From the IMG/VR virus record IMGVR_UViG_3300010163_000010, positions 1 to 64,000 of that record: 64,000 nt of DNA; one strand, given 5' to 3'. The notes under the pieces are model-generated. The model saw nothing but the letters and a program-made list of their open reading frames with translations, searched no databases and was not told where the DNA came from. Below are positions 1 to 59,462 of this stretch, piece after piece. This DNA comes from a virus (Duplodnaviria; Caudoviricetes). The first letter of the stretch is position 1. Every line of letters begins with the position of its first letter. The position numbers and the translations under genes are program-made.

Positions 1-121
1 ACTGGGCTCGTCTGACACAAAATCATGCGCGTCAACAGGAGACCGCGAGAAAGATGCGCTCTCGTTGATAGCGTTTGCAAGTTTCCACGCACTAAATGCC
101 ATTACTTGTCGCCTCCAATCA

Positions 122-6017: not shown

Positions 6018-6105
6018 TAGCTAACCTCTCCTTTCTTCCTGTAGTTTGTATATGTTATGCTTCGCCAGAGTAACCATATACATTATAGTCATTGTTGTGG
6101 GCAAT

Positions 6106-6870
6106 TCAGAACCCACCAACACGACGGTTATACTCTTGATCTGGATCATTATGGACTATTCTCAGTTGGCCATCGGTAATAGATCCTACCGATGTAGTGA
6201 CGTCATTACCTTCATAATATGAACTAGTATACATGGTACCACCTTGTACTGCCCATATGTATATATCTTCCGCCGGCGAGCACTATTAAGGATACCTTAA
6301 AAAATAATGTTCTGATATTATACGTCGATGGTACTACTGAAAGTCCAAGATTCGGTGGAGTAAATTGTATGTATCTAGAAACATCTGGTGGGTTCCGTAA
6401 AAATGGAACCCACCTGGATTAGACTCATCGCAAAGCCCATAGAGGCCTTGACCTATTGCAGGAATTAAACCTTCATACCACACAATATCCATACTTCTAG
6501 TTGCACCACCAAAATTATGCTTCGCCGGCGGAGCCATATTTTGGCCCTGATACAAAAACAAGTGTTATGTTTGTTGATACAGAAGGAGACAGTTTTACCA
6601 GTGTGACAGTAGACGTAATCTATGGTTATACATGTGGGTTCCGGTGCTATAATTTTGGAACCCACCATTCCAACTATTAAACCAACCACCAATAGCACCA
6701 GCGCCTGGAACATTTGAGTCATGTGCCATATTATCCCCGTATAATATAAATATGCTATAACCATCATCACTCGCCGGCGGACGTGTCACTCTATTTAATG
6801 GGCATCGAGTATACCGGTCGTATTATATGGAATACTTTTGGTCCACGCGAAGGTGATTTAGGTGGGTTCC
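6106..6870. repeat. array of six silent in-frame coding cassettes (three divergent pairs) bounded by CGCCGGCG and GGTGGGTTCC
   Basis: CGCCGGCG at 6271, 6523 and 6772. (G/T)GTGGGTTCC at 6387, 6633 and 6861. Inverse (G/A)GAACCCACC at 6108, 6405 and 6657. Inserts of 153, 108, 108, 102, 105 and 81 bp, all stop-free in frame (S/P)PA...(G/C)GF. Confidence 0.85.
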
Positions 6871-6894
6871 AACGCCCATCACAGAAAAAGAAAC

Positions 6895-6916
6895 GGCCCG
6901 GGGATATCCCCGGGCC
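6895..6916. terminator. perfect palindrome GGCCCGGGGATATCCCCGGGCC, likely intrinsic terminator of 6927-7382
   Basis: 22-bp palindrome followed by a T-rich tract on the minus strand. Confidence 0.7.
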
Positions 6917-6926
6917 ATTCCTGTTG

Positions 6927-7382
6927 CTATTTCTTCTTAAAGCGTACGCCAACGCGAAATCCGCGTCCCGGAGCCACCTCCATGACTCCACCAGCGAACT
7001 CCCTCTTGGGAACGAGTTCACCATCGGGATCCTCCAGCCGATACATCTTAGTCGGCTTGTCCCCTCCGAACCTGACACCAATGCCATCCTCGAAGTAGGG
7101 ATCCTCAAAATCCCGCCGATCATCATCGTCGTCATCGATCTGGTTATAGAGATTCTCAATCAGATCGAGCTGCCTGGTGAGGAGATCCTTCAACTCGGCC
7201 GTGTGGTTCTCCAGCGTCCTAACACGCTCTTCGAGTTCCTTCAGCCGATTCCCCTCACCATACGTCGATGTACGCTTGTTTCTGTTGTAGTTATTGGAGC
7301 TTGACCCCTGGACCGTGCTGGTGCGCTTCTCCTTGGGTTTCAGTTCGTAAAAGCCGTCGTTGTTACGGTTCTTCTTACTCAC
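6927..7382 (-). CDS. hypothetical protein with coiled coil and N-terminal DGFYELKPK motif
   Basis: 151-aa ORF with GTG start and AGGAGG RBS; early-type AT-rich motif upstream (~7488-7503). Confidence 0.7.
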   Translation of the reverse strand: MSKKNRNNDGFYELKPKEKRTSTVQGSSSNNYNRNKRTSTYGEGNRLKELEERVRTLENHTAELKDLLTRQLDLIENLYNQIDDDDDDRRDFEDPYFEDGIGVRFGGDKPTKMYRLEDPDGELVPKREFAGGVMEVAPGRGFRVGVRFKKK

Positions 7383-17485: not shown

Positions 17486-20400
17486 TTATAGACCTGTCAT
17501 CCGATTAATGATATCCGCTCCAACATCATCAACCTCTCGGTCACCATTGGAATAGATAGGTTCACCAACCGGAACGTGATAGTTATTCCGTTTAGTCCGT
17601 CTAGACTGGCCATCGGACGGACCTTCTTTAGGCTGCTCGGTATTTGTCTTAATAGCGGAAAGCAATTCTACCATCTGTCCCATCATTGCCGCAATGCCAT
17701 TAAGAATCTTGTCCGTTTCGACATTAGTGCTTCCGGCTGTATTAGTTCCATTAATAGCACTCGTGATCGCATTCGTAACCTGAGAAACCGTAGTATCGCT
17801 CTTGGCTTCACTGCGAATCTTGTCCATCTGATTATTGAGGGCAATGACCTTTCGGTTCAATGCGGTCACATTATAACTCGTATTGGTTACAGGGCCCTTA
17901 CCATAATCGGAAGGATCAGCAGCAACTCCTTCGGCATACCCAGTTTTGAAATCCTTTTCAATATCGGGATCTAATCCAGGACCTTTGCCTGCAAGTTCCT
18001 GCACGCGATTCATGTCGTTGGCCATTCCGACACTGGCATTGACAGGCTTAGCAGAGGTTGTTAATGTTTTTGCAACATCAGCGGTTGTAGAAGACTCAGA
18101 TATCGGGCTTGTCTGCTGGGCCAACACCCCACTGGCGCTATTATCGGTTGGAGCTTGTGTAGTTGTCGTTCCATCTGTAAACGGTTCGGGTGCAGTATTG
18201 ATGTATGTGTTATAGATCTCCTGTGCGTATTTGGCACGCTTCTGCCAGGCATTGTATCCATTGGTACCCTTTTTACTGAACCCGGGGTACTCATAGATGT
18301 CCAAACCCTGACGAGCAGCCTCCGTGGGATCAGGTGCGGCATTGAGTGCATCCTTCAGGTTTGTATAAGACTCAGCGTTCTCATGCTTAAAGTACTCAAG
18401 TTGTGTGCCGAGTTCGTACCAGTTCATTCCGTTCTGAGCAGACCAATCAAACAGATTCTTGGCGCGACCTTTGGTCCACTGCGCCAGACCAATACCAGGC
18501 CAATAGTGTCCATCCAGAATATAGCCATTACGAGCATACTTGAGGCCGTTCTTATCATACACCGGGAAGAGCATATCCCGAGTATAATGGTCCATTGTGG
18601 CTCGATCGCTATATAACTTCTCATAGGTCAAACCGTGCTTGTCAAAGTCGAAGAGGTAATCACCCTCGATACGATCAGGAGTATTACCAGATTCGGCTTG
18701 CCAGCATCCCATGATGCCAGAGGCACCAACGGGAGTAAGACCAAACTCAGTTGTAAGCCAATCCCAGGTACGTTTCTTATTGACTGTCGGATCAGTAGAC
18801 GTTTCAATGTTTTTACCGCTTCCGATACTGGTGCTTGTTGTACCACCAGTTGTTCCGGATGTATCGTACGATGTTCCACTAACGGAAGTTCCATTTGTAG
18901 ATGCAGTGGGACCACCACCGGTAAGGATGGACAACAAGTTCGAAATCTTACCTGTAACGGTAGAGAACATGTTGTTTACAATACCAAGCAGTGAGCCAAG
19001 AGTTCCATCGAAACCGATGCTGCCAGTAGTATCAGTTGTCTCGAATCCAGTGGATCCTCCAGTACTGGTAGTACTGCTCGAACTGCCACTGGTACTTGCT
19101 GTCGCAGCATTCCCATCCGCATATCCAGCAGCTTCTCCTCCGGTATAACCAATTAAGGACATATTGCTTGCAGGATTCTTCGTGTAAAGGTTATTTATCG
19201 ATCCGCCGTTAGGACCTCTAAATACCCAGAGGGATTTATTTCCTTTGGTTATCGAACTTACAGGCCAGGTCTTCATTGTACGTTTCTCACTGAACGGATC
19301 ATTCACGAGAACTTGACCATCGCTAGTCATGCCAACCAGTGTGATAAAGTGCCCGCTTCCACTTGTAAAGTCATTATGCTGCTCACTAGCTATCATCGGA
19401 TATCCGGCCGACAGAGAAGAAGTTATGGCATTCTTGCTTCCAGTGCTAAGTTGTTCGGCATCAATACCATAAAGTTTACTCAATTTCGGGAATAGTATGC
19501 CACCGGCAGTACCACTGTGCTCTGTTCTAGCTCCATTCTCCCTAGACCAGTTGGCAACACCAACAGGATCCACATTAGCACCATACGACCGCAGAATCAT
19601 CGACAGCGATGTGGGACCACAAGCGGAGTTATACATATTCTGCTTCTTGTAATCCGGGTCATTCGGGCCAAGCACCGTATATTTGACCTTTGCCCAACGA
19701 GGATCCGTTTGCATATAGAACGGGAAGTTATTCTTATGAACAATTCCACTCTGTGCATCGAATCCGGACACAGGAGTACCAGCAGCCGCCTTAACCGTTC
19801 CCAGCTCTTGTCCTTGATCAATCTCACCCTTACCGAAATCTTCAGGCTCTGGAGGTTCATCAAACCCAGGACCTTTTCCGAATCCAAGAGCATTCTTTAC
19901 CGTGTTTACACCAGTACTAAAAGCATTACCGACCTTCTGAAGCATAGTTGTCTTTTCCACGCCTTTGGATTCATATTTTTCCAAATAATCATCCATAGTA
20001 AGATCAGGAGAATTCTCTTTATTGTACTGGACCAGATCGTTGTATACCTTCGTCTGAGCATCAGCGAGTGCATCTTTATCGCCAAATAGACCATATACAA
20101 ATACGACGATATCATCCATAATCAAAGCAGCCGCAGAGCTTAGCAATAAACCAAGCGGACCTTTGATTAAACCAAGGAGCTGTCCCAATGCACTGCATAT
20201 ACCAGAAGTTAACTTCATGGCAAGCGTCGCATCTTTACTGTAGATTCCAAAATACTGATCGGTATTATTGATCCCATCGAAGAATGCAGCAATAGCAAAA
20301 GCCAGCTCTGTAAGCGGTATTACTGAGCTAACTGTTTTAAGAGCATTTGCCGCAGCTGCTCCGGTGGATGTTGCAAGAACCTTATCGATAACATGCTCTG

Positions 20401-23400
20401 TGACGTATTTCTGAATTGGCTTGATAATCTTAGTTATCAGATTGTAGTTAACCGAACGTATAAATCTTGCTACAGGGCTGCTGCCTGTAAAGAACGTATT
20501 CAGGATCTTACCGAAGAGTTGACTCACCTTATTAGAGCTGCTCATCATGCGTCGTACTTGGTGATGATCAGGGAGCATTCCCATTAATCCACCATTGATA
20601 ATATTTGCCCCGACTAATCTTGTGGCAGCATCAGTTTCAAGTCCCTGTGTTATGTTCCCAGCAACGCTAAGTCCAAATGTCACAGGAGATACATCATCGA
20701 AAGCACTCTTGGTGCTAATCGAAGAAGTTGTACTAAGACTGGCTGGTGCATTTAACTTGGCCTTGGTGCTGTCTGAAACTTTATTAGACGAAGCGTTCTT
20801 CTTAGCCGCATAGGTTTGGGGTCTTCTGGCTAATCCGTTAGAACGTGTAGATGTTTTGGATGTAATACCAGAGCTGGTGTTTGTACCAGTATCGACCAGA
20901 ACCTCACCGGTGCCCCACTTGGACTTATTCAAATCAGGAGGCATCGTATCAGGCATACAGAGGCCGGCTTCACACTTCGGACCCTTACCGCCTTCGAGCG
21001 GGCCTTCATTCTCTGTCCTGTCTGTCTCTCCGGCATCAAGCATACCCAGGTCAGTAACAGTCTCAAGCATGAGGCTGTTCTTCTTGTCTTTGTCATCTTT
21101 ATCCTCGGGGCCTTTTCCATAAGAGTATACAGCTTTGGATGTATTATCAACCAGCTTACTCATTGTAGTGGACTTACGACCACCAGTTAGAGGATCGACC
21201 AATCCAACCTTATTACCAGATGCCTTCTCAGCAACCATGTAATGAGTATTCTTACCATACACGCCGCCTTTACCCATTACAACTGCAGGTTTACCGGAAG
21301 CCAGACTAGTTCCCAATGTACCAGGATCAACGGGGCCCTGTTTCATATTAAAGCCATGTGCAGAGGCGTACTTACTATAGAATGCTGGATTCGTTCCGCC
21401 GTCCTTAGCACGCATACCCGTAAGCTTGCTCAACTTGTCAGCCTCTACCGGGCTGGCCTTTTTGTCTCCGTACGCAGATGCTACCATTGCCGCGGCAGTA
21501 GGTCCACATCCAACCTTAGCCATTTCAGCTGAACCATGGTTCCACTTACTGGACTGCTGACTCATCGGGGTAACCGGTCCAGTACCCCAAGAAGAATCCA
21601 TCAACTTTGCGGCTTTCTCGCGGATTTTTGCTGAACCATTAAGATCCGATGCATCAAACCGAGGAGTTGTATCCTCTGGGCCTTTACCCCAGTTCCAAGG
21701 CATCCAGCCACCAACGGTATCAACTACCGTAGTGATACCTTTCCCTACCGCACGAACGCCATTACCGATCCAATTACCAACGGTAGAAACAGCATTCTTC
21801 GCACCATCGATAAACCCGGCAACTCCGGTCTTTTGTGCAGTGCTCGTTACAGCACCAGTACTACTGGTATTACCCATAAGCGCATTAGTCATTCCAGTAG
21901 CGAAAGAATCAAAGATCGTAGCCTTCTTGCCGTTTACTTCCTTCATGTCACCAAGGAATGTGTTGCCCATTCCCTCGCCAATACGTCCAAATAGTTCAGG
22001 TATTTTCTTCTTACCTTTAAGTACATCTGCCATTGTATCCATAACAGATGCACCAAGACCTTTACCAAGAGTCAGCAATGCTTCCAAAGCTTCCTTAGAA
22101 GTCTTAGTCTTAGGTATCATGTTATCTGTAGTCTCAGGAGCAGGGCCGGTTCCATATTCTGTTTCACTTGAAGTCGTCACGTCATGACTCTCTGGAGGTT
22201 CATATCTAATTTCACCTTCAGATGCTGATGCTCCAAAGGCTTTGCCATTGGTAGCTTTTTCCGTATCAACCACAAGACCAGCTTTAATGCCACGGTATCC
22301 AGCACTGATAATGGGAATTGAACTGTATGCTTTCTCAGCAGCTCCAACCGCAGAACCTACGGTATCAACAACCGCACCACCAGCCTGCTTCAGACCACGA
22401 TATGCACCACCTATAAAGGGAATACTTTCAATGCCTTTATCGACAGCACTTCCAGCACTGCTGACTGCCTCAACGGCACCTTTGGCCAAATTCTTTCCGC
22501 CCTTGTAAATGTCACCAAGGATCGGAATGCCCTCTATGGCCTTATCAATAGCCTGAACGATTCCAGAAAGAGCTTGTTTAATTGCAGAGGTAATGCCACG
22601 TACAATCTCAGACAGACCTTTATCAGCACCACCGATCATGGCTCCAAACGTCTTCATTATGCCAGAACCAATTGATGTGAAAAGGTTTATGACATTTTTA
22701 GGATTGAATATAATTTTTATGCCTGCCCATGCCGCCGTAACGATACCTTTGCCCAAACTGAACAACAGCTTCACAATACTTCCAGCAATCTTCACACCGC
22801 CACTGATAATACCTCCACCGAGCTTAGCCGCGAACTCACCAAGGCCGCCGCCTTCTTTGATTGTACCGCCAAAGAAGTTACCAATAGCAGTACCGATTGT
22901 AGCAGGTAGATTCTCGGCAATACTAGCTAGCTTGTCGTAAAATCCACCGATAACTTTCGGAATAAGTTCCGGAAGCCTGTCAGCAAAATCACTGAGCTTC
23001 TGGCCAATACTCTCTGCCATATTGCCAATGAAACTAGTGAACTTATCGACTACAACAGGCGCGCCTTCAACGAAATTGATAGCAGCATTCCCAACGGCTT
23101 TAGCACCATTCTTAACACCGGTAACAACATTGGTGGCCAAATTCTTGGCTTTTTCACCGAGACCACCAAACACATTCTTCACACGAGTACCAAATGTCTC
23201 TTTTTCTCCCTTTTCGTTGAACTGCTTTGCATACTCATCTACAGTAAGATCAGTACCATTAGCTTTATTATATGCATCGGTCGCAGCCTGCAGTTTTTGC
23301 TGATCTTCTGCCAACTCTTTCTTATCAGCATCACTGGCCAAAAGGCTATAGACCATCTGTACGATATCATCCTGGAACATGGCCGCAGCAACCGAAAGAA

Positions 23401-26400
23401 CAGGGCCAACACCGGGGATCAAACTGAGCAAGCCGCCAAGAGTATTGACGATACCAGAAGTTAATCTCATGGCCAAGGACACATCAGAGCCAAAAACGTT
23501 AAAATACTTCTTAGCGTTACCAAAACCAGCAATGAAGTCGGCAACAGCAAATGCAACAGCTAAACCACCACCGCTTGCAAATGCCGCAATCTGCTTACCA
23601 GCACTCTTTAAAGACTCTTTTGCACCGGACTGCATTGCTTTCTCAAGAACAGGTCCACAGAGCTTAGATGTAAGCTTGGATGCGAGTTCTCCGAGCTTGC
23701 CTTTAAGACTGCCGAACATCTTCACTATGGTCTTATTGCTCGTAATAGCTTTAACAGCTTTAGCTATAGCAGACTTTACTGGGCCAAGCTTAGCCATGTC
23801 ATCAGCCGAACCAGCTGCAGCTTTTCCAATCTGACCAATATTTTTACCGATACCAGTAATTCCATGAGCAAGCTGTTCAGCTCCCCAGAGCCGGTTGCCC
23901 TCTTCGCCAAAGAGATTGTATGCTGTTCCAGCTACACCGGCAAGAGTTCCAACAGTTGGTAATACAGTTTTCGTTAATACCCCGCCTACAGCTTTCCCAA
24001 CAGCACTTCCGCCCAACTTGGTCAGCAATCCGCCAATAGGACCACCAATTAGGGATCCTATTGTTTCAAGGAGACTTTTCTTCTCTTCTTTTTCTTCTTT
24101 GGCTCCTTCTGCGGCAGCTTCGCTATCATTCATTGCCTCGGCTGATTGAATAGCATTGATCTCATCCATACTTTGTGCATTTTGAATTGCATTATCATAC
24201 ACTTCGCGAGGATTGTCAGACTTCTCAGCTGCGGCATCAACTTTGCGGTATCTTTGCTTGAACTTCTCAAGACCAGTCTTCCGTGTTATTTTATCCATAG
24301 CGGCTCTTTCTGCAGCTTCCTTTGCAGACTCAGCCTCTGTAGAAGCTACGATCTTACCGCCAACTGTTGCTAGAGTACCAGTACTGCTCCCGGCCAGAAT
24401 AAACCGTGCTTCATTGGACATATCCAACCCATTTATCTCGCCGCTGTAGATCTTCTGTAGAACCTCTTCTTCTGTTATCGATTTAACTTCCTGTCTCGCC
24501 TCTGGTGAAATATTTGTACGATTCGTAATCTTAAGTTTCTTATTACCACCAGCGTTGAGCATTCTATAATTAAGCTTCTTCTGTGCAGTTTCCAAAACTG
24601 AAGCTTCTGCAGTTTCGGGTGTATTTGTTTCGGTGGTCTCATCATTTGAGCTTTCTTCATCAGAAGTTATAGGCATAAGTCTAATCCGTAACCGCTTAAG
24701 TCTAGCCCTAGGAGTTTCCGCGGTTTTTGTTTCATCCTCAGATGTAGATGCCTCTTTGGTTTCCTTTTTAGTCTCATCTTTTGAACTCTCACTGGTATCG
24801 GTTATAGACCTAAGTCTAGGTACTCTCCTAACGTTAGGTCTCTTGGTTGTAGATTCATCGGTAGATATTTCTTCAGCTTTCTTCTCTTCAGACTTTGTAT
24901 CTTCAGTTGTATCAGATGTAGAAGGATTAGAACGTCCGGATATGTTGTTCATCAGGGTATTAATGCGATTCCGCACGTCTCCCATGATGTTATCAACTTT
25001 TTCTGCAGTTTCACGTTTGATTCGTTCTTCGGTAGTCTCAACCGTTGGCCCTGCTTCTGTTGAAGATTCATTTCCAGGGCCAGCAGGAGTCGCCTTGTTG
25101 TCTGTAGTGCCACTATCACCAGTATCGGAAGGATTTGGATTCATCCTATCCCACATCTGATAATTAATGCCAGCAATATACACTGGAATTGTTGCATCAG
25201 GAGGCATCGCACATCCGCCTAATGGATCCACATACGACACAGGGAACGGAATGTTGAGTCCTTCACCGCCAACGGAAATAGGAACCATTCCCTTGATCTT
25301 AAGACCATGAAGAACAATCTTCGGATCCAATGTGAAGTTTGAGATCTTATCCGCAATCCAGCTGACACCGCCTTTGATACCTTGCCAAACAAAACCAACA
25401 GCCTTTAAAGCTCCTTTACCGATAGCCTTTAGCCCTTTATATATCCCCATTCCAACTTCAGGGATCATGGCCCCTGCTAGTTGAACCACACCAGAGATAA
25501 CCCCGGATATTGCCAAAATACCATCATGAAGAACTCCGCTCAATGTGGAAATAGTGTTGCCAACTGCCTCACCAATTCCCTTAGCAGCACCAAGAAGGGT
25601 ATTGCCTACAATTCTAACTGCACCGACAAAGCCCTCGCCCAAGGTCTTAGTTACAGTCCAGAGTGCATTGGCAACACCTTTGGCACCTTCAAAGAGGAAG
25701 CTACCAATATCAAGCAGGTGATCCTTAAGGAAGGTAGCGGCAGCACCAATAGCTCTGAACGGAAGAGTTACAATGCCCTTGATCAAATCCCATAGACTGT
25801 AAACTTTATCAAGAATGATGTCCTTGATGCCAGTAAAGAATCCGCTGATACGATCAGCCATACGGCCCCAGAAGTTCCGATATTTCTTTACATCTTTACG
25901 GCTTCCTTCCATATGTTCATCGTATTCGTCTTCCTTAAGATATGGATTCTTTTTACCGCCACCCCACTTCTTATCGATAGCGGTTCGAATATAGGCCGTA
26001 TTCCAGCCAACACCGCCGATCTGACCATGAATTTCTTCATATATCTTGCGGGTATTAGCGGCTATCTCTTTAAGGTATGAGTTGTTCGTTTTTCTTCCAG
26101 GAAGTCTAATACTGCTCGTAGATTTATCATTCGTCGTACTGTCTCCAGAATCAGAAGATTTTTTCTTCGCTTTATCTTCTTCTGCTTGAGCTTTTAGCCT
26201 GTTACGTTCATCATTAGTAGCCGCTTTCTCATTCTTACGTTTTGCATCTGCGGCATCTGAATCCGACCTGTTCTTTTCACGATTAGCGTTAACTCCAGGA
26301 GTCTTCTTATCAGACGTTCCAGGAACAGGAGGCGGAGTAGGAGTTTTCGCCTTGGTAGTTTTAGAAGTACGAGTAGATGTCTTGTTCTTATCTTTACTCG

Positions 26401-29400
26401 CATTCTGATCAGTTTTGTCTTTATTACGGCCTAAGAGTCTATCAAGAAATCCGAGTCGAGATTGCCGGCGTTCCATCCGCTCTTTGATCTTCTGCTCTTT
26501 TCTCTTTCGCCGTTCTTCCATTTTGGCTTTAAGGTTTTCTTCCCGTTCTTTTTCGCGCTGTTTCCGACGTTCACGAGCTTCAGCGCTTAACTGATCCACG
26601 CTCTTATTATCAATACCACCAGTAGTAACCAACTCCAGAGCCTTAAACGGAGCAGAGATAATGGCTCCAAGAGCTTTACCGACAGCATCAAAGATTGTAT
26701 TAAGAGCTTTCTCCAGAGGACTAAGAACTTTATCCTTAAAGAAGCGTTTCATTTTCTGACCCGGACTCTCGGGATCATCCGGATCATTGAAGATTTTCGT
26801 AATTGAGTCTTTAATATGCTGACCAATATTCTTCATGGAGTTGGAGATAGATACTCCAGCTTCAGTAAGATGATCCCGTAATGGCTGCATAGAACGTCTA
26901 AATGGTTCAACGATAGAATCATGGAACCATGTTCCAATAGACTTACCAACAGCATTGATCTTATCGCCAAGAGGCTCCATGACTTTGTGCTGCATGAAGT
27001 CAAATGCTTTACCGAATAAGCCACCCTTACGTTTCTTTACCTTCTTGCCGGTAGGCTTACCATTCTTATCTAACTCATCCTCTTCGGTCTCTTCACCCAT
27101 AAAGAACTTACGAATATCATCAGCATTAACCGCACCTGTGATACCGCCGAGCAATGCAAAGATAGGTCCACCAGGCAGCAGCGACAGCCCAGGAATAATA
27201 CCAATACCGGAAATCAGGCTCCACGCAGCTCCACCCAATGCGGCACCACCAAGAGCAGGACCAATGGAATCTTTAATGGCTTTGCGAGTCTTTGGCCCGA
27301 GAAGTGATTTCTCATTGCCTTCTGCATCAAGTTCACTTCCGAACAAAGCCTCTTTCATCTGTTCAGATGCAGAGATCATTCCACCAAGGCCACCAAGAAG
27401 AGCACCGATAAATGGACCTCCAGGAAGGAATAGACTGCCGATAATGCCAAGACCACTGCCGAGTGCAATGTTTGGGAAGTATTTCTTAAACCCGTCGTAT
27501 ACGGTCTTATCAATAAGGCCGCCCTTTCGACTGTCGACTTTTACGTGCTTATCAATCTTACCCGTCTTCCAGTCAAATACGACTCGGTCTTCATCCTTAC
27601 TCACTTCACCAAAGAGATATTCTTTAAATTTCTCAGAGGCAGATAAGAATCCACCGAAGGATCCAATAAGTGCTCCAAGAATAGGTCCACCAGGAAGGAA
27701 TAAGCTGCCAAGTATGCCAACTCCAGCACCAATGACCATATCCGGGAAAGCCTTTTTCATCTCAGTGGCCATTAGGTCAAATTTCTTCCTGGAATCATGT
27801 GTATCCTTTTCAAACTCATCATAATCCGCACGAGCGTAGTCGGGACCAAGCATCAGATCTTTAAAATCATCAGCAATATTTTTGAACAGTCCGACTAACC
27901 CATGATATTTGAACTTATAACCGCCATATATATCCTGCTCGTTATTCTCATCGTAAATATGACCTTCTGTATCATAGAGTTCCTTCTTGCGGCCACGATA
28001 CTTCTTACCTTCTTCATTGCCCCACAGAAGTTTATCCCACCAGCTGAGTTTAGCTTTATTTTCGGCTTCTGATTCCTCATCGCTTTTACGTTTGGAAGAT
28101 GAGCCGCCTTTAAGTGTCTCTTTGGCATTAGAAGTAAGTTCACGCCCTCTATGAATAATAGAGTTAATTTTATCGCTCCATTTGCCACCCTCATAGTCTT
28201 CGTAATGAGCATTCTTTACCGCATCTTCATGTACTGGTGTACCAGATTGATACCGCCATACGCCATCTTTATCTTTTATGATTGTATCTCCGGCTTCAGT
28301 AACTTTGCGATTCTTATCACGCTTACCAATTAACGACTCTTTATATCCCGTAAGTTTCTCGCTGACTGGCTTAACCACTTTCTGATTTAGCCTATCGGCA
28401 ATTTGCGGGAGTAGGCCGCTCTTCGGATCAAACATGAACTTCTTAAACGGATTGCCAATATTCTCAGCAAACCAGCTCTTAGCAGAAAGCCAGTTAGCCT
28501 TCAATGTCGCCTGAAGAGAATCAAGAATCGATGGGAGTTTATGCTTATCCAACAAGACTGCAGACGCGTCCTCACCATAAAGCACTCGGAACAGGAAGCT
28601 GTCCACAACTTTAAGACCATCCGTAACAAGATCAAATGGAACCTTACCGTACTCTCTTGTAAGTTCAGCAAGTTTCTTGAAACCGACCTTATCAAGCATT
28701 CCATTTACTTCCTTGGATAACTCTGCGGCCTTTTCGTCCATAGTACGTTTAGCGCCAGACGGTATCTGATCTTTCTCGTACTCTTGTATACGTCCGTTGT
28801 TTATAATAGGAGCACCGGTCTTTTTATCTGTAGGAGCTGTATTAGCCCTAAACTGTTTCATCGTATTACCAATACGCAGAACATCAGCACCTTCCGAACG
28901 AACGATAACAATATGACCGCCAAAGGCTTCATTATCTTTTGCTCGTTGTTCGTTATCAGAAACTTCTTTATCATGTGCTGCTCTCTTACGATTGATCTCT
29001 TGTACTTTTCGATCTTCCTGATATGAATAACGCTTCCACCCTTTATCGGAAAGTTTCTTTGCCGCTTCAATGTTAGCATTAACATTATCCGGAAGACCAT
29101 TTGTAACGATCCGTTCACCATTTTTGCCTTTAGGTTTAACAACCTTTGTCTTAGTGCTGTCTCCAAGTAAGTATGTGTAAGTGATGATTCCGCGTTCCAG
29201 CATAGTACGAATATCATTCACCATTGTATTCATCGGCAAAGGAACACCAAGCACCGTACGTCTCTCTATGTCTTTATCATGCATCTCTTGGATTTCATTA
29301 GAAGATGCTCCGCCGGCGACAGACTTAGACAACGAAATGATCTGACTCTCAATGCCTGGATCAAGCATACCCATATATGCAGCAATCTTACCGGTATCAT

Positions 29401-31144
29401 GCAGCATGTTATTTTGATATGCATTATTCTGATTACGAGCCATTCTTGCATCGATAATCTCTGAAGATAATTTCTCTAAGTCAAGGTCATCCAATGTAAG
29501 CAACGCCTGTTGGATAATATCACCGAATAGAACTGAATCATTTCTAGAAAGACCACCCGGAAGAGTTTTCCTGAATTCCTCCCGGCTTATATGCGGATCA
29601 ATAAATGCACTATTCTCAGCTTGATTCTGAAGGTACTGATAGACTACATCATTAAAACGCTTTTGGTCCTCTGGATCGACAAATTCGATAGCCCGTGTAT
29701 TCTCTACGAACTGGTTGGCAGCAGAGCCCATACGGTTTACAAGATCATTCGCCTGATTTGTCTGCTGTGCCAGTACTTTCTCCGCGTCTGTAAACTTTCC
29801 TTCTTTATAATCAAAAATCTTTAAGGGAAGTCCTGTCAAGTCAGAATGAATTTGACTTAACAGAGTTGGAATAACCTCTTCTATCGCTTTTGCTGCTTTA
29901 CTGGTATATAATGCTTGAGCAGTTGGATCTCTCATTCCGGTGTCGATGTACTTCCTGGATCGTGTGCTGGCACCGAATATACCCTTAATAAGATCACTTA
30001 TCTTCGTGCTTTCACCGGAGTCAAACTTCTTACCAGCGTCTGCCCACTTGGTAAGTAATGCAGGGAAGAACCCTGCAAGTTTCTCACCGGTAAGGTGAAG
30101 CTGCCTTTTAAATGTTTCGGGCATGATCTTTGTAAGAAGCTGGTCTGTTACAAGCTGCCAGGGGTTGTCCCCAACGTACTCCAGTATGTTACTGAGACTA
30201 CCGGCACCAGTTATCATGCTTAGATAACTGCCGATATTGTATTTCTCATCAAGATTCTTACCTGCCATCTTGAAGAGATTCCTAATATCGACTTCACCAT
30301 GATTACCAAAAATCTCAAGCTCTTCCCGCATTGTTTGTTTAGGTGCCTCAACCGGCTTAGTGTTCTTCTCGATGTTAGTCAGAACATTCATTACTTCCTG
30401 CATCTTGCCCATCATCTGATTGTGTGTCTCTCTGGTGACATCAAGGATGGACACAGCTGTCTGATTGATAGCCTGTACAGTAGCAGCCTGCTGAGTAACC
30501 ATGTTCTGAGCCGCATTCATAATCTGAGAATGCTGTTTCAAAGAAAGACGTATATCAGCCTGCGCATTCGCGTTTTCTGTATGAACAATAGCGGCGGTGC
30601 CCTCGGCAACAGCTTCAATCGTAGCCTCAGTGCGATTATCTTCTGTCCCTTCCTGGGCTTCCGCCAGGGCAATCTCTTTCTCCCAAGCTTCATCATCCTC
30701 AGCTTCAGGATTCCAGTCGCCATTTTCATCAAATGCAGACATGTCAACGTCACCGAAGTTATCCATGAGGCCACCCTCAGCGGCCTCTCCGAATTCAGAC
30801 CTACTCCGGTTTGCGTCGTACAGATTTCCGGTTTTCAAATCATCCAAAGCATTGCCTGCAAACCTCTTGAGGGCTTTAAAATCCTCGGTCTGCATGGCTT
30901 TGTTGATCTGACGATTGATATTGTCAACAGGGTTTCTCAAGAATCGTGCAACATCCTGAAGCAGTTCCTCGTTGGTATCAACCATACCGGCAATAGTTGG
31001 CAGTTCCTTGGCTACATACTCGGAACCTGACGCTAAAAAGAGCTGTGCGGTACCTTTAAAGTACTTGCCGCCTTTAGCAGCACATTCTTTAAGGCTTTGC
31101 CGCACATCTTTAGACATCTTATCATTGCCAGCATTTTTTGCCAC
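17486..31144 (-). CDS. giant tape measure protein with two C39-like peptidase domains and a tail lysozyme domain
   Basis: 4552 aa, largely helical, with Gly-zipper repeats (GSLFLPGGP.LGAL). C39-like Q...W...CGPT...H...DP occurs twice (~21120-21570 and ~19210-19730). Lysozyme-like GIMGCWQAES...GIGLAQWT...TQLEY at ~18200-18780. Confidence 0.85.
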   Translation of the reverse strand: MAKNAGNDKMSKDVRQSLKECAAKGGKYFKGTAQLFLASGSEYVAKELPTIAGMVDTNEELLQDVARFLRNPVDNINRQINKAMQTEDFKALKRFAGNALDDLKTGNLYDANRSRSEFGEAAEGGLMDNFGDVDMSAFDENGDWNPEAEDDEAWEKEIALAEAQEGTEDNRTEATIEAVAEGTAAIVHTENANAQADIRLSLKQHSQIMNAAQNMVTQQAATVQAINQTAVSILDVTRETHNQMMGKMQEVMNVLTNIEKNTKPVEAPKQTMREELEIFGNHGEVDIRNLFKMAGKNLDEKYNIGSYLSMITGAGSLSNILEYVGDNPWQLVTDQLLTKIMPETFKRQLHLTGEKLAGFFPALLTKWADAGKKFDSGESTKISDLIKGIFGASTRSRKYIDTGMRDPTAQALYTSKAAKAIEEVIPTLLSQIHSDLTGLPLKIFDYKEGKFTDAEKVLAQQTNQANDLVNRMGSAANQFVENTRAIEFVDPEDQKRFNDVVYQYLQNQAENSAFIDPHISREEFRKTLPGGLSRNDSVLFGDIIQQALLTLDDLDLEKLSSEIIDARMARNQNNAYQNNMLHDTGKIAAYMGMLDPGIESQIISLSKSVAGGASSNEIQEMHDKDIERRTVLGVPLPMNTMVNDIRTMLERGIITYTYLLGDSTKTKVVKPKGKNGERIVTNGLPDNVNANIEAAKKLSDKGWKRYSYQEDRKVQEINRKRAAHDKEVSDNEQRAKDNEAFGGHIVIVRSEGADVLRIGNTMKQFRANTAPTDKKTGAPIINNGRIQEYEKDQIPSGAKRTMDEKAAELSKEVNGMLDKVGFKKLAELTREYGKVPFDLVTDGLKVVDSFLFRVLYGEDASAVLLDKHKLPSILDSLQATLKANWLSAKSWFAENIGNPFKKFMFDPKSGLLPQIADRLNQKVVKPVSEKLTGYKESLIGKRDKNRKVTEAGDTIIKDKDGVWRYQSGTPVHEDAVKNAHYEDYEGGKWSDKINSIIHRGRELTSNAKETLKGGSSSKRKSDEESEAENKAKLSWWDKLLWGNEEGKKYRGRKKELYDTEGHIYDENNEQDIYGGYKFKYHGLVGLFKNIADDFKDLMLGPDYARADYDEFEKDTHDSRKKFDLMATEMKKAFPDMVIGAGVGILGSLFLPGGPILGALIGSFGGFLSASEKFKEYLFGEVSKDEDRVVFDWKTGKIDKHVKVDSRKGGLIDKTVYDGFKKYFPNIALGSGLGIIGSLFLPGGPFIGALLGGLGGMISASEQMKEALFGSELDAEGNEKSLLGPKTRKAIKDSIGPALGGAALGGAAWSLISGIGIIPGLSLLPGGPIFALLGGITGAVNADDIRKFFMGEETEEDELDKNGKPTGKKVKKRKGGLFGKAFDFMQHKVMEPLGDKINAVGKSIGTWFHDSIVEPFRRSMQPLRDHLTEAGVSISNSMKNIGQHIKDSITKIFNDPDDPESPGQKMKRFFKDKVLSPLEKALNTIFDAVGKALGAIISAPFKALELVTTGGIDNKSVDQLSAEARERRKQREKEREENLKAKMEERRKRKEQKIKERMERRQSRLGFLDRLLGRNKDKTDQNASKDKNKTSTRTSKTTKAKTPTPPPVPGTSDKKTPGVNANREKNRSDSDAADAKRKNEKAATNDERNRLKAQAEEDKAKKKSSDSGDSTTNDKSTSSIRLPGRKTNNSYLKEIAANTRKIYEEIHGQIGGVGWNTAYIRTAIDKKWGGGKKNPYLKEDEYDEHMEGSRKDVKKYRNFWGRMADRISGFFTGIKDIILDKVYSLWDLIKGIVTLPFRAIGAAATFLKDHLLDIGSFLFEGAKGVANALWTVTKTLGEGFVGAVRIVGNTLLGAAKGIGEAVGNTISTLSGVLHDGILAISGVISGVVQLAGAMIPEVGMGIYKGLKAIGKGALKAVGFVWQGIKGGVSWIADKISNFTLDPKIVLHGLKIKGMVPISVGGEGLNIPFPVSYVDPLGGCAMPPDATIPVYIAGINYQMWDRMNPNPSDTGDSGTTDNKATPAGPGNESSTEAGPTVETTEERIKRETAEKVDNIMGDVRNRINTLMNNISGRSNPSTSDTTEDTKSEEKKAEEISTDESTTKRPNVRRVPRLRSITDTSESSKDETKKETKEASTSEDETKTAETPRARLKRLRIRLMPITSDEESSNDETTETNTPETAEASVLETAQKKLNYRMLNAGGNKKLKITNRTNISPEARQEVKSITEEEVLQKIYSGEINGLDMSNEARFILAGSSTGTLATVGGKIVASTEAESAKEAAERAAMDKITRKTGLEKFKQRYRKVDAAAEKSDNPREVYDNAIQNAQSMDEINAIQSAEAMNDSEAAAEGAKEEKEEKKSLLETIGSLIGGPIGGLLTKLGGSAVGKAVGGVLTKTVLPTVGTLAGVAGTAYNLFGEEGNRLWGAEQLAHGITGIGKNIGQIGKAAAGSADDMAKLGPVKSAIAKAVKAITSNKTIVKMFGSLKGKLGELASKLTSKLCGPVLEKAMQSGAKESLKSAGKQIAAFASGGGLAVAFAVADFIAGFGNAKKYFNVFGSDVSLAMRLTSGIVNTLGGLLSLIPGVGPVLSVAAAMFQDDIVQMVYSLLASDADKKELAEDQQKLQAATDAYNKANGTDLTVDEYAKQFNEKGEKETFGTRVKNVFGGLGEKAKNLATNVVTGVKNGAKAVGNAAINFVEGAPVVVDKFTSFIGNMAESIGQKLSDFADRLPELIPKVIGGFYDKLASIAENLPATIGTAIGNFFGGTIKEGGGLGEFAAKLGGGIISGGVKIAGSIVKLLFSLGKGIVTAAWAGIKIIFNPKNVINLFTSIGSGIMKTFGAMIGGADKGLSEIVRGITSAIKQALSGIVQAIDKAIEGIPILGDIYKGGKNLAKGAVEAVSSAGSAVDKGIESIPFIGGAYRGLKQAGGAVVDTVGSAVGAAEKAYSSIPIISAGYRGIKAGLVVDTEKATNGKAFGASASEGEIRYEPPESHDVTTSSETEYGTGPAPETTDNMIPKTKTSKEALEALLTLGKGLGASVMDTMADVLKGKKKIPELFGRIGEGMGNTFLGDMKEVNGKKATIFDSFATGMTNALMGNTSSTGAVTSTAQKTGVAGFIDGAKNAVSTVGNWIGNGVRAVGKGITTVVDTVGGWMPWNWGKGPEDTTPRFDASDLNGSAKIREKAAKLMDSSWGTGPVTPMSQQSSKWNHGSAEMAKVGCGPTAAAMVASAYGDKKASPVEADKLSKLTGMRAKDGGTNPAFYSKYASAHGFNMKQGPVDPGTLGTSLASGKPAVVMGKGGVYGKNTHYMVAEKASGNKVGLVDPLTGGRKSTTMSKLVDNTSKAVYSYGKGPEDKDDKDKKNSLMLETVTDLGMLDAGETDRTENEGPLEGGKGPKCEAGLCMPDTMPPDLNKSKWGTGEVLVDTGTNTSSGITSKTSTRSNGLARRPQTYAAKKNASSNKVSDSTKAKLNAPASLSTTSSISTKSAFDDVSPVTFGLSVAGNITQGLETDAATRLVGANIINGGLMGMLPDHHQVRRMMSSSNKVSQLFGKILNTFFTGSSPVARFIRSVNYNLITKIIKPIQKYVTEHVIDKVLATSTGAAAANALKTVSSVIPLTELAFAIAAFFDGINNTDQYFGIYSKDATLAMKLTSGICSALGQLLGLIKGPLGLLLSSAAALIMDDIVVFVYGLFGDKDALADAQTKVYNDLVQYNKENSPDLTMDDYLEKYESKGVEKTTMLQKVGNAFSTGVNTVKNALGFGKGPGFDEPPEPEDFGKGEIDQGQELGTVKAAAGTPVSGFDAQSGIVHKNNFPFYMQTDPRWAKVKYTVLGPNDPDYKKQNMYNSACGPTSLSMILRSYGANVDPVGVANWSRENGARTEHSGTAGGILFPKLSKLYGIDAEQLSTGSKNAITSSLSAGYPMIASEQHNDFTSGSGHFITLVGMTSDGQVLVNDPFSEKRTMKTWPVSSITKGNKSLWVFRGPNGGSINNLYTKNPASNMSLIGYTGGEAAGYADGNAATASTSGSSSSTTSTGGSTGFETTDTTGSIGFDGTLGSLLGIVNNMFSTVTGKISNLLSILTGGGPTASTNGTSVSGTSYDTSGTTGGTTSTSIGSGKNIETSTDPTVNKKRTWDWLTTEFGLTPVGASGIMGCWQAESGNTPDRIEGDYLFDFDKHGLTYEKLYSDRATMDHYTRDMLFPVYDKNGLKYARNGYILDGHYWPGIGLAQWTKGRAKNLFDWSAQNGMNWYELGTQLEYFKHENAESYTNLKDALNAAPDPTEAARQGLDIYEYPGFSKKGTNGYNAWQKRAKYAQEIYNTYINTAPEPFTDGTTTTQAPTDNSASGVLAQQTSPISESSTTADVAKTLTTSAKPVNASVGMANDMNRVQELAGKGPGLDPDIEKDFKTGYAEGVAADPSDYGKGPVTNTSYNVTALNRKVIALNNQMDKIRSEAKSDTTVSQVTNAITSAINGTNTAGSTNVETDKILNGIAAMMGQMVELLSAIKTNTEQPKEGPSDGQSRRTKRNNYHVPVGEPIYSNGDREVDDVGADIINRMTGL

Positions 31145-31228: not shown

Positions 31229-31334
31229 TCGCCGGCGGAGAGTGATAGTTTATGGGTAATCGGTGGGTTTAATGGGAACTATGAAGCGTTTGGTTATTTA
31301 TGGGAAAATATCCCTGGATGGAATGGTGGGTTCC
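31229..31334 (+). repeat. solitary silent cassette SPAESDSLWVIGGFNGNYEAFGYLWENIPGWNGGF
   Basis: TCGCCGGCGGA at 31229 and GGTGGGTTCC at 31325, with an 87-bp stop-free in-frame insert. Confidence 0.8.
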
Positions 31335-31834
31335 TATTTCTTATCCATACGACGCTGGAGAGCCAGCATGCGGTCAACAAGGCTCTTCTTATATGTGATC
31401 TTTCCAGCGTACTTGCCGGAACGTTCCATCTTACGAAGGCCAACCATAAGAAGCTTATTGCGGAATACCCGCATATTCTTACCACACTCAGTGTAGATAT
31501 ACATAGCTTCATCAATGGCATCCGATACCCACTCGATATCGTTAGGGCCATACTCAAAGGTGTCAATGATATTGGCCCGCTCGCTGGAACTAACCATACC
31601 AGCATGCTTCAGCAGCTTATCCAGGAACGCCTTCATACTGCTATTGATATCGACATCATCCGCGATAAGCTGATCGTGCTTAAGAATCCACTTCTTAGCC
31701 TTAAAGTTCTCATCGGCCAAGACTGCATATACGAGTCCCTGGAAATCGGACTTCGAAAACCTGCTGGACGGATTCTCTTTGAGATCGGCGATCATCTGCT
31801 CTACGCTCGCCGCGTACTCTTTCTTGTCATCCAT
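31334..31834 (-). CDS. hypothetical protein
   Basis: 166-aa ORF with AGGAGG RBS, last gene of the PAAR operon. Confidence 0.65.
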   Translation of the reverse strand: MDDKKEYAASVEQMIADLKENPSSRFSKSDFQGLVYAVLADENFKAKKWILKHDQLIADDVDINSSMKAFLDKLLKHAGMVSSSERANIIDTFEYGPNDIEWVSDAIDEAMYIYTECGKNMRVFRNKLLMVGLRKMERSGKYAGKITYKKSLVDRMLALQRRMDKK

Positions 31835-38318: not shown

Positions 38319-38451
38319 GGAACCCACATTCTGCACCACGATTCACGGACATCGCTGCTAGATAACCGTCTGATAGTATAAGTGATCCATTCATTAGAAT
38401 GATATATACCGCCAGTGCCTTTGGATCGTAATAACTATCTGTCGCCGGCGG
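38319..38451 (-). repeat. solitary silent cassette PPATDSYYDPKALAVYIILMNGSLILSDGYLAAMSVNRGAECGF
   Basis: CGCCGGCG at 38443 and GGAACCCACA at 38319, with a 114-bp stop-free in-frame insert. Confidence 0.75.
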
Positions 38452-38950
38452 GAGGTTCTTGCTGCCAGCAGTTGTCAGACCGATCCTCGCTGAAAGAGTT
38501 ATCTGCAGCATCATCCGGCTCAACAGGCGCACTCTCATCGAACGCACTTGTGTCTAACCAGTCGACAGGTGTGTAGAAGGAATGAACCTCTTTATCGCCC
38601 ATAACCCAGAAACCAGAGATTTCTGACCAGACAATCCACTGCCCAGGGCACACTACAAGCGGCCCAGAGACATCATCGTTGAGGATAATGTGAAGCTCAT
38701 CCAGTGCATTGTGACCATGGTCACACGCAATCTCCACATTGTCGACAGAAATCGTCTTTCCACCGGTAATGCAGCAAAAAGCATCCCCGAGCCACTCAAT
38801 CACCTGCTGCAGATTACCGGGGAAGTTTTCCTTGGTGCAAACGTACTGAATGCCAACCAGGTTTCCTTTGGGCACCAGTTTGAGAATCGACCTAAATCCC
38901 GTATCAGACTCAGGCCGCAGGTCTTTAATCCCATTCTCATCCAACTGCAT
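38435..38950 (-). CDS. hypothetical protein
   Basis: 171 aa with AAGGAG RBS; N-terminal DENGIKDLRP. Its last codons overlap the cassette site. Confidence 0.65.
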   Translation of the reverse strand: MQLDENGIKDLRPESDTGFRSILKLVPKGNLVGIQYVCTKENFPGNLQQVIEWLGDAFCCITGGKTISVDNVEIACDHGHNALDELHIILNDDVSGPLVVCPGQWIVWSEISGFWVMGDKEVHSFYTPVDWLDTSAFDESAPVEPDDAADNSFSEDRSDNCWQQEPPAGDR

Positions 38951-59250: not shown

Positions 59251-59462
59251 ACGGAACCCACCGTGATGCATTGGAGTTGGAGGAGCAAATATAAAGCCAT
59301 ATATACCATGCTCATCAACTATAAAAATTTCATCAGTATCAAACCCATAGTCCTCCGCCGGCGACAATTACGGAATATAGTGCAGTTATTGCTATATGTG
59401 CAGGGATAAGTAACTATTACACATATGTAAATAACCCGCCAACTGCACCTGGTGGGTTCCGT
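59251..59462. repeat. divergent pair of silent cassettes sharing a CGCCGGCG site
   Basis: ACGGAACCCACC (59251) - 93 bp - CGCCGGCG (59356) - 87 bp - GGTGGGTTCCGT (59451); both arms are open in frame. Confidence 0.85.

Follow-up and report, generated by a model that had tools for sequence, protein, structure and literature searches.

We identified 12 short coding units, here called cassettes, in an uncultured jumbo phage. They are intergenic and start-less, unrelated to one another in sequence and unequal in length. Probably, they are silent coding alternatives to one part of a receptor-binding tail protein of the DUF6273/C-type-lectin-like type, namely its variable strand-hairpin segment, and would be swapped into an acceptor gene for that protein. 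The segment that they would span extends from the 'SP' that follows a conserved WW/YW strand as far as the 'GF(R)' strand. In relatives of the phage, such a lectin-like protein is encoded next to the terminase and is diversified by a DGR.

The window (the whole stretch of DNA analysed, 64,000 nucleotides) corresponds to bases 1-64000 of the 105,182-bp IMG/VR virus record IMGVR_UViG_3300010163_000010, for which CheckV estimates a completeness of 41%. The contig is collinear with the 230,855-bp genome of a relative, G003, with about 60% protein identity. Exact-protein look-ups identified no other assemblies or near-identical strains of the source phage on record.

Cassette inventory

A scan of the whole contig recovered the 12 units at six loci, with ten units in the window and two beyond it. 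Each starts at CGCCGGCG and ends at G(G/T)TGGGTTC, and only these end words are common to the units. Their lengths range from 33 to 57 aa. The stretch at 6106-6869 consists of six units in alternating orientation. The units and their junctions, together with one decayed unit, are as follows (window coordinates, except where the contig is named):

6063..6101, plus strand: decayed short unit at the left array edge; 5' word degenerate (CGCCAGAG), 3' word degenerate (GTGGGC), stop as the fourth codon
6109..6278, minus strand: cassette 1, 57 aa, SPAEDIYIW...VGGF, stop codon immediately after
6271..6395, plus strand: cassette 2, 42 aa, PPASTIKD..VLILYVDG..SGGF, then R; CGCCGGCG palindrome in common with cassette 1
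6387..6414, no strand: tail-to-tail junction, GGTGGGTTCC-N8-GGAACCCACC, a 10-bp inverted repeat
6406..6530, minus strand: cassette 3, 42 aa, PPAKHNFGG...NPGGF, then H
6523..6641, plus strand: cassette 4, 40 aa, SPAEPYFGPDTKTSVMFVDTEGD...TCGF, then R
6633-6666, no strand: second tail-to-tail junction, with a 14-nt spacer
6658..6779, minus strand: cassette 5, 41 aa, PPASDDGYSIFILYGD...WNGGF, then Q
6772..6869, plus strand: cassette 6, 33 aa, SPADVSLYLMG...DLGGF, then Q
31230..31333, plus strand: cassette 7, single, 35 aa, SPAESDSLWVIGG...WNGGF
38320..38450, minus strand: cassette 8, single, 44 aa, PPATDSYYDPKALAVYIILMNG...ECGF
59254..59363, minus strand: cassette 9, 37 aa, SPAEDYGFDTDEIFIVDEHG...HHGGF, then R; flanked by two tail-fibre-like genes
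59356..59459, plus strand: cassette 10, 35 aa, PPATITEYSAVIAIC...APGGF, then R and a stop; head-to-head with cassette 9
contig 73195-73307, minus strand: cassette 11, single, outside the window
contig 89049-89152, minus strand: a further single cassette, outside the window

At its start, the decayed unit has 25 nt copied from the junction between cassettes 3 and 4 (84% identity).

The peptides share a plan, already recognized in the preliminary description and borne out when read from the units: SPA or PPA, a polar stretch, a hydrophobic strand (e.g., IYIW, VLILY, VMFV, IFILY, LWVI, VYIIL, IFIV), a turn with Gly, and GGF (CGF in two units and SGF in one). The counts given there for the ten units of the window are also correct, in that the codon after the end starts with C in nine and encodes Arg in four. 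Over the whole contig, Arg is the next codon in six of the 12 units.

Coding signal

The two end words lie in one common frame in 12 of 12 units, for which the chance expectation is (1/3)^11 = 5.6e-6. The frame that reads S/P-P-A ... G-G-F contains no stop codon in any unit, compared with about three (approximately 1 to 7 each) in the other five frames. Based on shuffled interiors, the joint probability of a common and open frame is about 2e-14. With codon log-odds trained on long genes of the same phage, only the cassette frame scores positive (+31 bits, versus -206 to -517 in the others).

The end words are themselves over-represented. GTGGGTTCC has 11 copies in the 105 kb, each of them at a cassette end (0.57 copies expected), and CGCCGGCG has 14 copies (0.83 expected). 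As a control, the word pair was sought in other IMG/VR contigs, where it matched 96 times. Only 13 of these matches are in frame and open, as chance predicts, and all 13 are in contigs of 57-69% G+C, in which stop codons are rare; none is related. The observation of the cassette units is confirmed, and is beyond chance.

Genomic context and junctions

All units are intergenic, and none is an in-frame part of a longer gene. We identified no start codon or promoter context at any unit, and several have in-frame stops within a few codons upstream of SPA. Expression in situ as small genes was ruled out by these stops and by the overlap of head-to-head units. The cassettes have no Rfam match, so known RNA families were also rejected. 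Cassette 7 is wedged between the stop codon of a gene (31334-31834, minus strand) and the terminator hairpin of that same gene. The 5' word of cassette 8 overlaps the last codons and the stop of a 171-aa gene (38435-38950, minus strand) in a different frame. Frameshifting from this gene into the cassette was considered and rejected, as it needs a +1 shift and there is no slippery site; the overlap is more simply an artefact of insertion.

Head-to-head neighbours overlap at the 8-bp palindrome CGCCGGCG, and tail-to-tail neighbours present inverted GGTGGGTTCC words with 8 or 14 nt between them. Cassettes 6 and 11 share a 3' flank of 74 nt (85% identity), to which the terminator at 6874-6918 belongs, and the cassette bodies are unrelated. 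Because this homology stops at the 3' word, the 3' word is marked as a recombination junction.

The terminator hairpin itself, which is GC-rich (GGCCCGGGGA.ATCCCCGGGCC), is present in 96%-identical copies at window positions 6874-6918 and contig positions 73146-73191, each beside the 3' end of a cassette. These copies may reflect either simple reuse or movement together with the cassette.

Six more CGCCGGCG palindromes are located off the cassettes, at 3982, 14439, 29311, 40890, 52104 and 60416, and those at 3982, 29311, 40890, 52104 and 60416 are inside genes. These six sites are more than the 0.83 expected over the entire contig. One of them, at 29311, has 14 nt in common with two cassette junctions. 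In-frame fusion to SPA was rejected for the sites at 3982, 29311 and 60416, whose genes use different frames there (AG or RRR). With the two single cassettes that lie past the window, the opposite strand on the far side of the palindrome (contig 73300-73395 and 89145-89210) opens like a cassette (PPASENFIFIFD... and SPAVERERVEVIYLFLF..., respectively) and then reaches a stop without a 3' word. These openings may be truncated partner units.

The 151-aa protein adjoining the array (window 6927-7382) contains NDGFYELKPK, which fits the motif DG(F/Y)YxLxP. A 4552-aa protein is encoded at 17486-31144 of the window. Its homologues in relatives have matches to Peptidase_M23 and phage lysozyme and weak C39-like matches, so the protein is probably injected or virion-associated and cell-wall-degrading.

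DGR components and recombination enzymes

The preliminary description had set the cassettes apart from a classical DGR, and this distinction stands. Lengths are unequal, interiors are unshared, and the contig lacks an RT and any TR/VR-like repeat. In a comparison of the contig with itself, we found no TR/VR repeat pair of equal length differing at TR adenines. Cassette interiors are 30% A and are not rich in AAY. The absence of A-specific differences and the unequal lengths led us to reject classical DGR repeats.

There is no RT match (PF00078) in the 105-kb contig, which represents approximately 41% of the genome; G003 has one. The contig ends about 5 kb short of the place where the relatives carry their DGR module. 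Over the same 105 kb (about 41% of the genome), no serine or tyrosine recombinase was identified, with neither a Resolvase match nor a Phage_integrase match above the cut-off. Pfam and PHROGs identified no nuclease or recombinase among ten genes, most of which lack a homologue in G003.

Absence of cassettes from relatives

Cassettes were not found in relatives with 62-85% protein identity (the whole of G003, two partial records, and the array site in L235). L235, the 83% relative, was examined at the site syntenic to the array and has three small genes where the array would sit; the contig of the 85% relative stops before that site. The syntenic gap at 59.2 kb is 127 bp in G003, with no cassette, versus 298 bp here, and the gap at 73 kb is 79 bp in G003 versus 750 bp here. 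Given their absence from G003, the short G003 gaps and the small genes in the 83% relative, the cassettes are specific to this lineage. As the relatives lack cassettes where examined, transfer is not visible by comparison.

The variable segment in the tail proteins of relatives

We identified DGRs with C-terminal variable segments in two relatives. That of G003 (L028:7397-10855, equivalent to G003 227.4-230.9 kb; L034:7154-11503) comprises a 375-aa tail-fibre target, a 326-aa ORF, a TR and a 501-aa RT. The target, which has a weak match to DUF6273, ends ...WWLATA[VR]GFRPHVALAAS. The VR is unlike between two assemblies of the same phage, which indicates that this DGR is active in nature. In the second relative (L128:6403-9887), the target, an avd-like gene, the TR and the RT are in canonical order directly upstream of the terminase. 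Its target ends ...YWWTS-SPA-GSSGVYVVYGDGAIGSYIYPSYS-CGF-RPHVCITLQLT, and its TR peptide, SSPNSSSNVYNVNSDGTINNNNPSNSNGFRPIG, is almost the same as that of G003. The TR/VR homology in L128 begins at S-S-P and ends at GFRP.

The borders of the cassettes (S/P-P-A ... G-G-F, often followed by R) are the TR/VR borders of these DGR targets. In the DUF6273/C-type-lectin-like proteins the segment is delimited as (W)W-x-x-S-P ... G-F/V-R-P, and the ends of the 12 cassettes are S/P-P-A and G/C/S-G-F without exception. At the DNA level, the 3' ends compared are TGTGGGTTTCGC in L128, TGGGTTCCGG in G003 and G(G/T)TGGGTTCC(G) in the cassettes. The 3' end of the G003 VR and TR, TGGGTTCCGGCCCC, has TGGGTTCC in common with the cassette 3' word.

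A family profile of the C-terminal domain matched 4202 proteins, with the consensus ...WWTRSPYSSSNVYYVSSSGSISSNGAPSSSYGFRPAICLDL (in summary, WWTRSP..VYYV..SG....GFRP). The AlphaFold model of the L128 C-terminal domain has a pLDDT of 85 and a pTM of 0.82. Against the PDB, it gave C-type-lectin-like matches only (the Lcl C-terminal domain, an IgA peptidase domain and CTLDs), all of which are weak (best E 0.002). In this model the variable segment lies at the C-terminal end of a C-lec-fold protein, as it does in the G003 target, and SPA..CGF forms the end of one strand and a beta-hairpin. This geometry agrees with the published account of DUF6273 as C-lec-like, with a VR that forms a surface beta-hairpin (PMC10743442; bioRxiv 10.1101/2024.10.15.618418).

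Resemblance of the cassette interiors

The cassettes were previously suggested to resemble the variable region of C-type-lectin-fold receptor-binding proteins. The resemblance holds for the borders, which equal the TR/VR borders of the relatives, and for composition, and comparison of profile scores with shuffles agrees weakly. The cassettes contain 11.1% G, 7.9% Y, 2.0% W and 1.5% K, versus 7.4, 4.3, 0.8 and 7.4%, respectively, in the phage genes. This is close to the composition of the family variable segment, which is rich in G, Y and W and poor in K.

The cassettes were scored with HMMs of the family variable segment, and the interiors were shuffled with the ends fixed as controls. The summed score of the 12 cassettes is 27.3 bits, versus 5.3 +/- 6.5 for shuffled interiors, and none of 500 shuffles reaches it. 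A second family profile gave 23.0 versus 5.1 +/- 6.5 (0 of 300 shuffles reach the score), and a third gave 28.4 versus 17.3 +/- 5.9 (18 of 400). Most of the signal comes from four of the 12 cassettes (4, 8, 9 and 11). Cassette 4 is the best match to the variable-segment profile, with 11.3 bits, a score reached by none of 500 shuffles.

Searches of other kinds gave no significant result. Single cassettes have no Pfam match, and the hhalign comparison of the cassettes with the family is not significant (E 0.35); the sole stretch that it aligned places the hydrophobic strand of the cassettes on the VYVVYGDG strand of the family. Judged from these sequence comparisons, the resemblance of the interiors to the family segment appears modest but real. 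The earlier interpretation as a whole is partly supported.

Search for the acceptor gene

No acceptor with a lectin-like end was found in the 105 kb by a regular-expression scan of all frames. A profile search with the 12 peptides found no cassette inside a longer protein among the proteins of 101-2000 aa in a collection of 5.8 billion clusters. In that search, an intact copy of 11 of the 12 cassettes would score 30-46 bits and pass the threshold. Viral contigs, metagenome contigs around terminase homologues and prokaryote genomes contained only chance or terminator-like matches to an acceptor. The searches based on the terminase neighbourhood and on fibre homologues returned relatives and not the source lineage, and homologues of the fibre proteins of relatives contained no SPA...GGF. 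Likewise, no expression site with cassette borders was identified in the 105 kb (about 41% of the genome) or in the viral, metagenome and protein collections.

The layout of a further relative, L238, is informative about the left end of the contig. L238 has a lectin-like fibre gene (...TQGFRAVVALMM), which lies some 5 kb left of the point that corresponds to window position 1. Its 369-aa gene is about 5 kb from this lectin-like fibre gene and from the terminase. Window positions 1-121 are a cut homologue of the 369-aa gene, and the first bases encode the N-terminus. From this layout and the cut homologue, the contig stops just short of the expected acceptor site. The assembly break at the left end may reflect population heterogeneity at the locus. 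No acceptor was found on the contig or in the databases searched, and the cassettes are a putative donor library.

Proposed mechanism and alternatives

In the mechanism that we propose, the acceptor is off the contig, probably about 5 kb past its left end, and one cassette at a time would replace its variable segment. Replacement would occur by recombination at the two invariant words, YCGCCGGCGR (5') and GTGGGTTCC (3'). Both borders are conserved as DNA words, and thus replacement would need two crossovers. The likeliest route would be orientation-independent copying (gene conversion or template switching) and not adenine mutagenesis; such copying fits the mixed orientations and the dispersal of the cassettes. 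The palindromic 5' word would permit head-to-head storage. Loop length and sequence could be altered in one step, and receptor specificity would be altered with them. An acceptor of this type would be expected to read TCGCCGGCG ... GGTGGGTTCC(G), or TCGCCGGCG ... GGTGGGTTCCG(N)CC, in frame (SPA ... GGFRP), beside the terminase. At only 8-10 nt, the conserved words are short for ordinary homologous recombination, a point against this explanation.

The broader proposal is that the virus has a system of the antigenic-variation type, with a genome-wide store of ready-made binding loops of unequal length and whole swaps into a lectin-like tail protein at two short words, replacing or complementing the DGR with which related phages diversify this slot. 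We put this forward tentatively, with slightly more doubt than belief.

The cassettes could instead be inert relics, i.e., dead copies of variable segments that are unused by-products in intergenic DNA, derived from off-target integration of DGR cDNA beside GC-rich hairpins or from past recombination with other phages. The lack of an acceptor, RT or recombinase on the contig would be consistent with relics, as would the decayed unit and possible truncated partners, the position of several units beside terminator hairpins, and the relatives without cassettes. However, the open frames in 12 of 12 units (about 2e-14) and the near-perfect end words point to maintenance or a very recent origin. Products of a single TR would also share their length and non-adenine positions, whereas these units share nothing between the end words. 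We consider this origin unlikely. Somewhat less likely still is a multi-template retroelement, in which the cassettes would be alternative TRs for an off-contig DGR-derived RT, with cDNA primed at an IMH-like GTGGGTTCC(G) and resolved at CGCCGGCG. An avd-TR-RT module does lie beside the target gene in relatives, and in G003 the VR and TR have a GC-rich 3' end that the 3' word overlaps, but the cassettes are neither adenine-rich nor AAY-rich, they occur in both orientations at six loci with no common flanking RNA element, and the 105 kb lacks an RT.

Alternation of orientation, the head-to-head palindrome and the tail-to-tail arrangement (10-N8/14-10) are all features expected of a shufflon-like exchange, in which a recombinase would act on the palindrome and the inverted GGTGGGTTCC words and a cassette would enter the acceptor by reciprocal exchange through paired inversions. 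In G003, a serine recombinase gene is present at another place in the genome. No recombinase is present on the contig studied here, however, the sites are shorter than known recombinase sites, and their spacers are unequal (8 and 14 nt). With loci distributed over 83 kb, the intermediates would be very large inversions, and no cassette adjoins the constant part of a gene that it would complete. Shufflon-like exchange thus seems as improbable as the multi-template retroelement. Finally, the head-to-head pairs end in perfect inverted repeats (e.g., 59251-59462), and all copies are intergenic and lineage-specific, as might be the case for a non-coding MITE-like element with terminal inverted repeats of 10-12 bp and incidental open frames. 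Unlike transposing copies, however, the units have interiors that are unrelated in both sequence and length. Coding constraint is evident from the codon log-odds and from the statistics on common and open frames, and Rfam has no match. A MITE-like element is very improbable.

Comparison with known systems

Phages are known to retarget receptor binding in three ways: point mutagenesis by DGRs, invertible tail-fibre ends, and slow modular exchange between phages. If silent alternatives to the variable segment are indeed what the cassettes encode, storing whole loops as a library would add a fourth, allowing jumps in loop length and shape that are beyond the reach of a DGR. Such a library would also account for some of the intergenic DNA that is unannotated in jumbo phages. 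We found no description in the literature of a silent binding-loop library in a virus. As read from its bases, the genome displays a head-to-head, dispersed cassette architecture, which is not proof of use.

Shufflons and multiple inversion systems (Rci/pilV of R64; Gin, Cin and Min of Mu, P1 and p15B) likewise alternate the tips of binding proteins between short inverted repeats. In R64, Mu, P1 and p15B, the parts exchanged are C-terminal ends next to the constant portion of the gene, and the recombinase is encoded next door. In contrast, the cassettes would replace an internal segment with two borders, and they adjoin no constant part.

The in-frame segments with short conserved borders correspond to silent donors of the type known from Treponema pallidum tprK, Borrelia vlsE/vls and Neisseria pilE/pilS. 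Like the cassettes, those donors lack promoters and start codons and are in frame between short conserved borders. They are in part arrayed and in part dispersed and encode a surface-exposed variable region, as the cassettes would. The hosts of the tprK, vls and pilS systems are bacteria and their donors are diverged paralogues, whereas here the host is a virus, the cassettes are unrelated, and they are known without an expression site or transfer. Also unlike those systems, one border of the cassettes is an 8-bp palindrome common to head-to-head units.

The DGRs with DUF6273 or C-lec targets (Mtd of Bordetella phage BPP-1; the tentaclin and Mtd-like targets of gut phages; G003 and L128) act on the same slot, the C-terminal variable segment SP ... 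GF(R)P, and TGGGTTCC of the cassette 3' word is found in the VR/TR end of G003 as well. A DGR uses one adenine-rich template to make point variants of fixed length, whereas here there are at least 12 unrelated units, not adenine-rich, of 33-57 aa, in both orientations and at six loci. A library in a slot that relatives diversify with a DGR would offer a natural comparison of two strategies on one scaffold.
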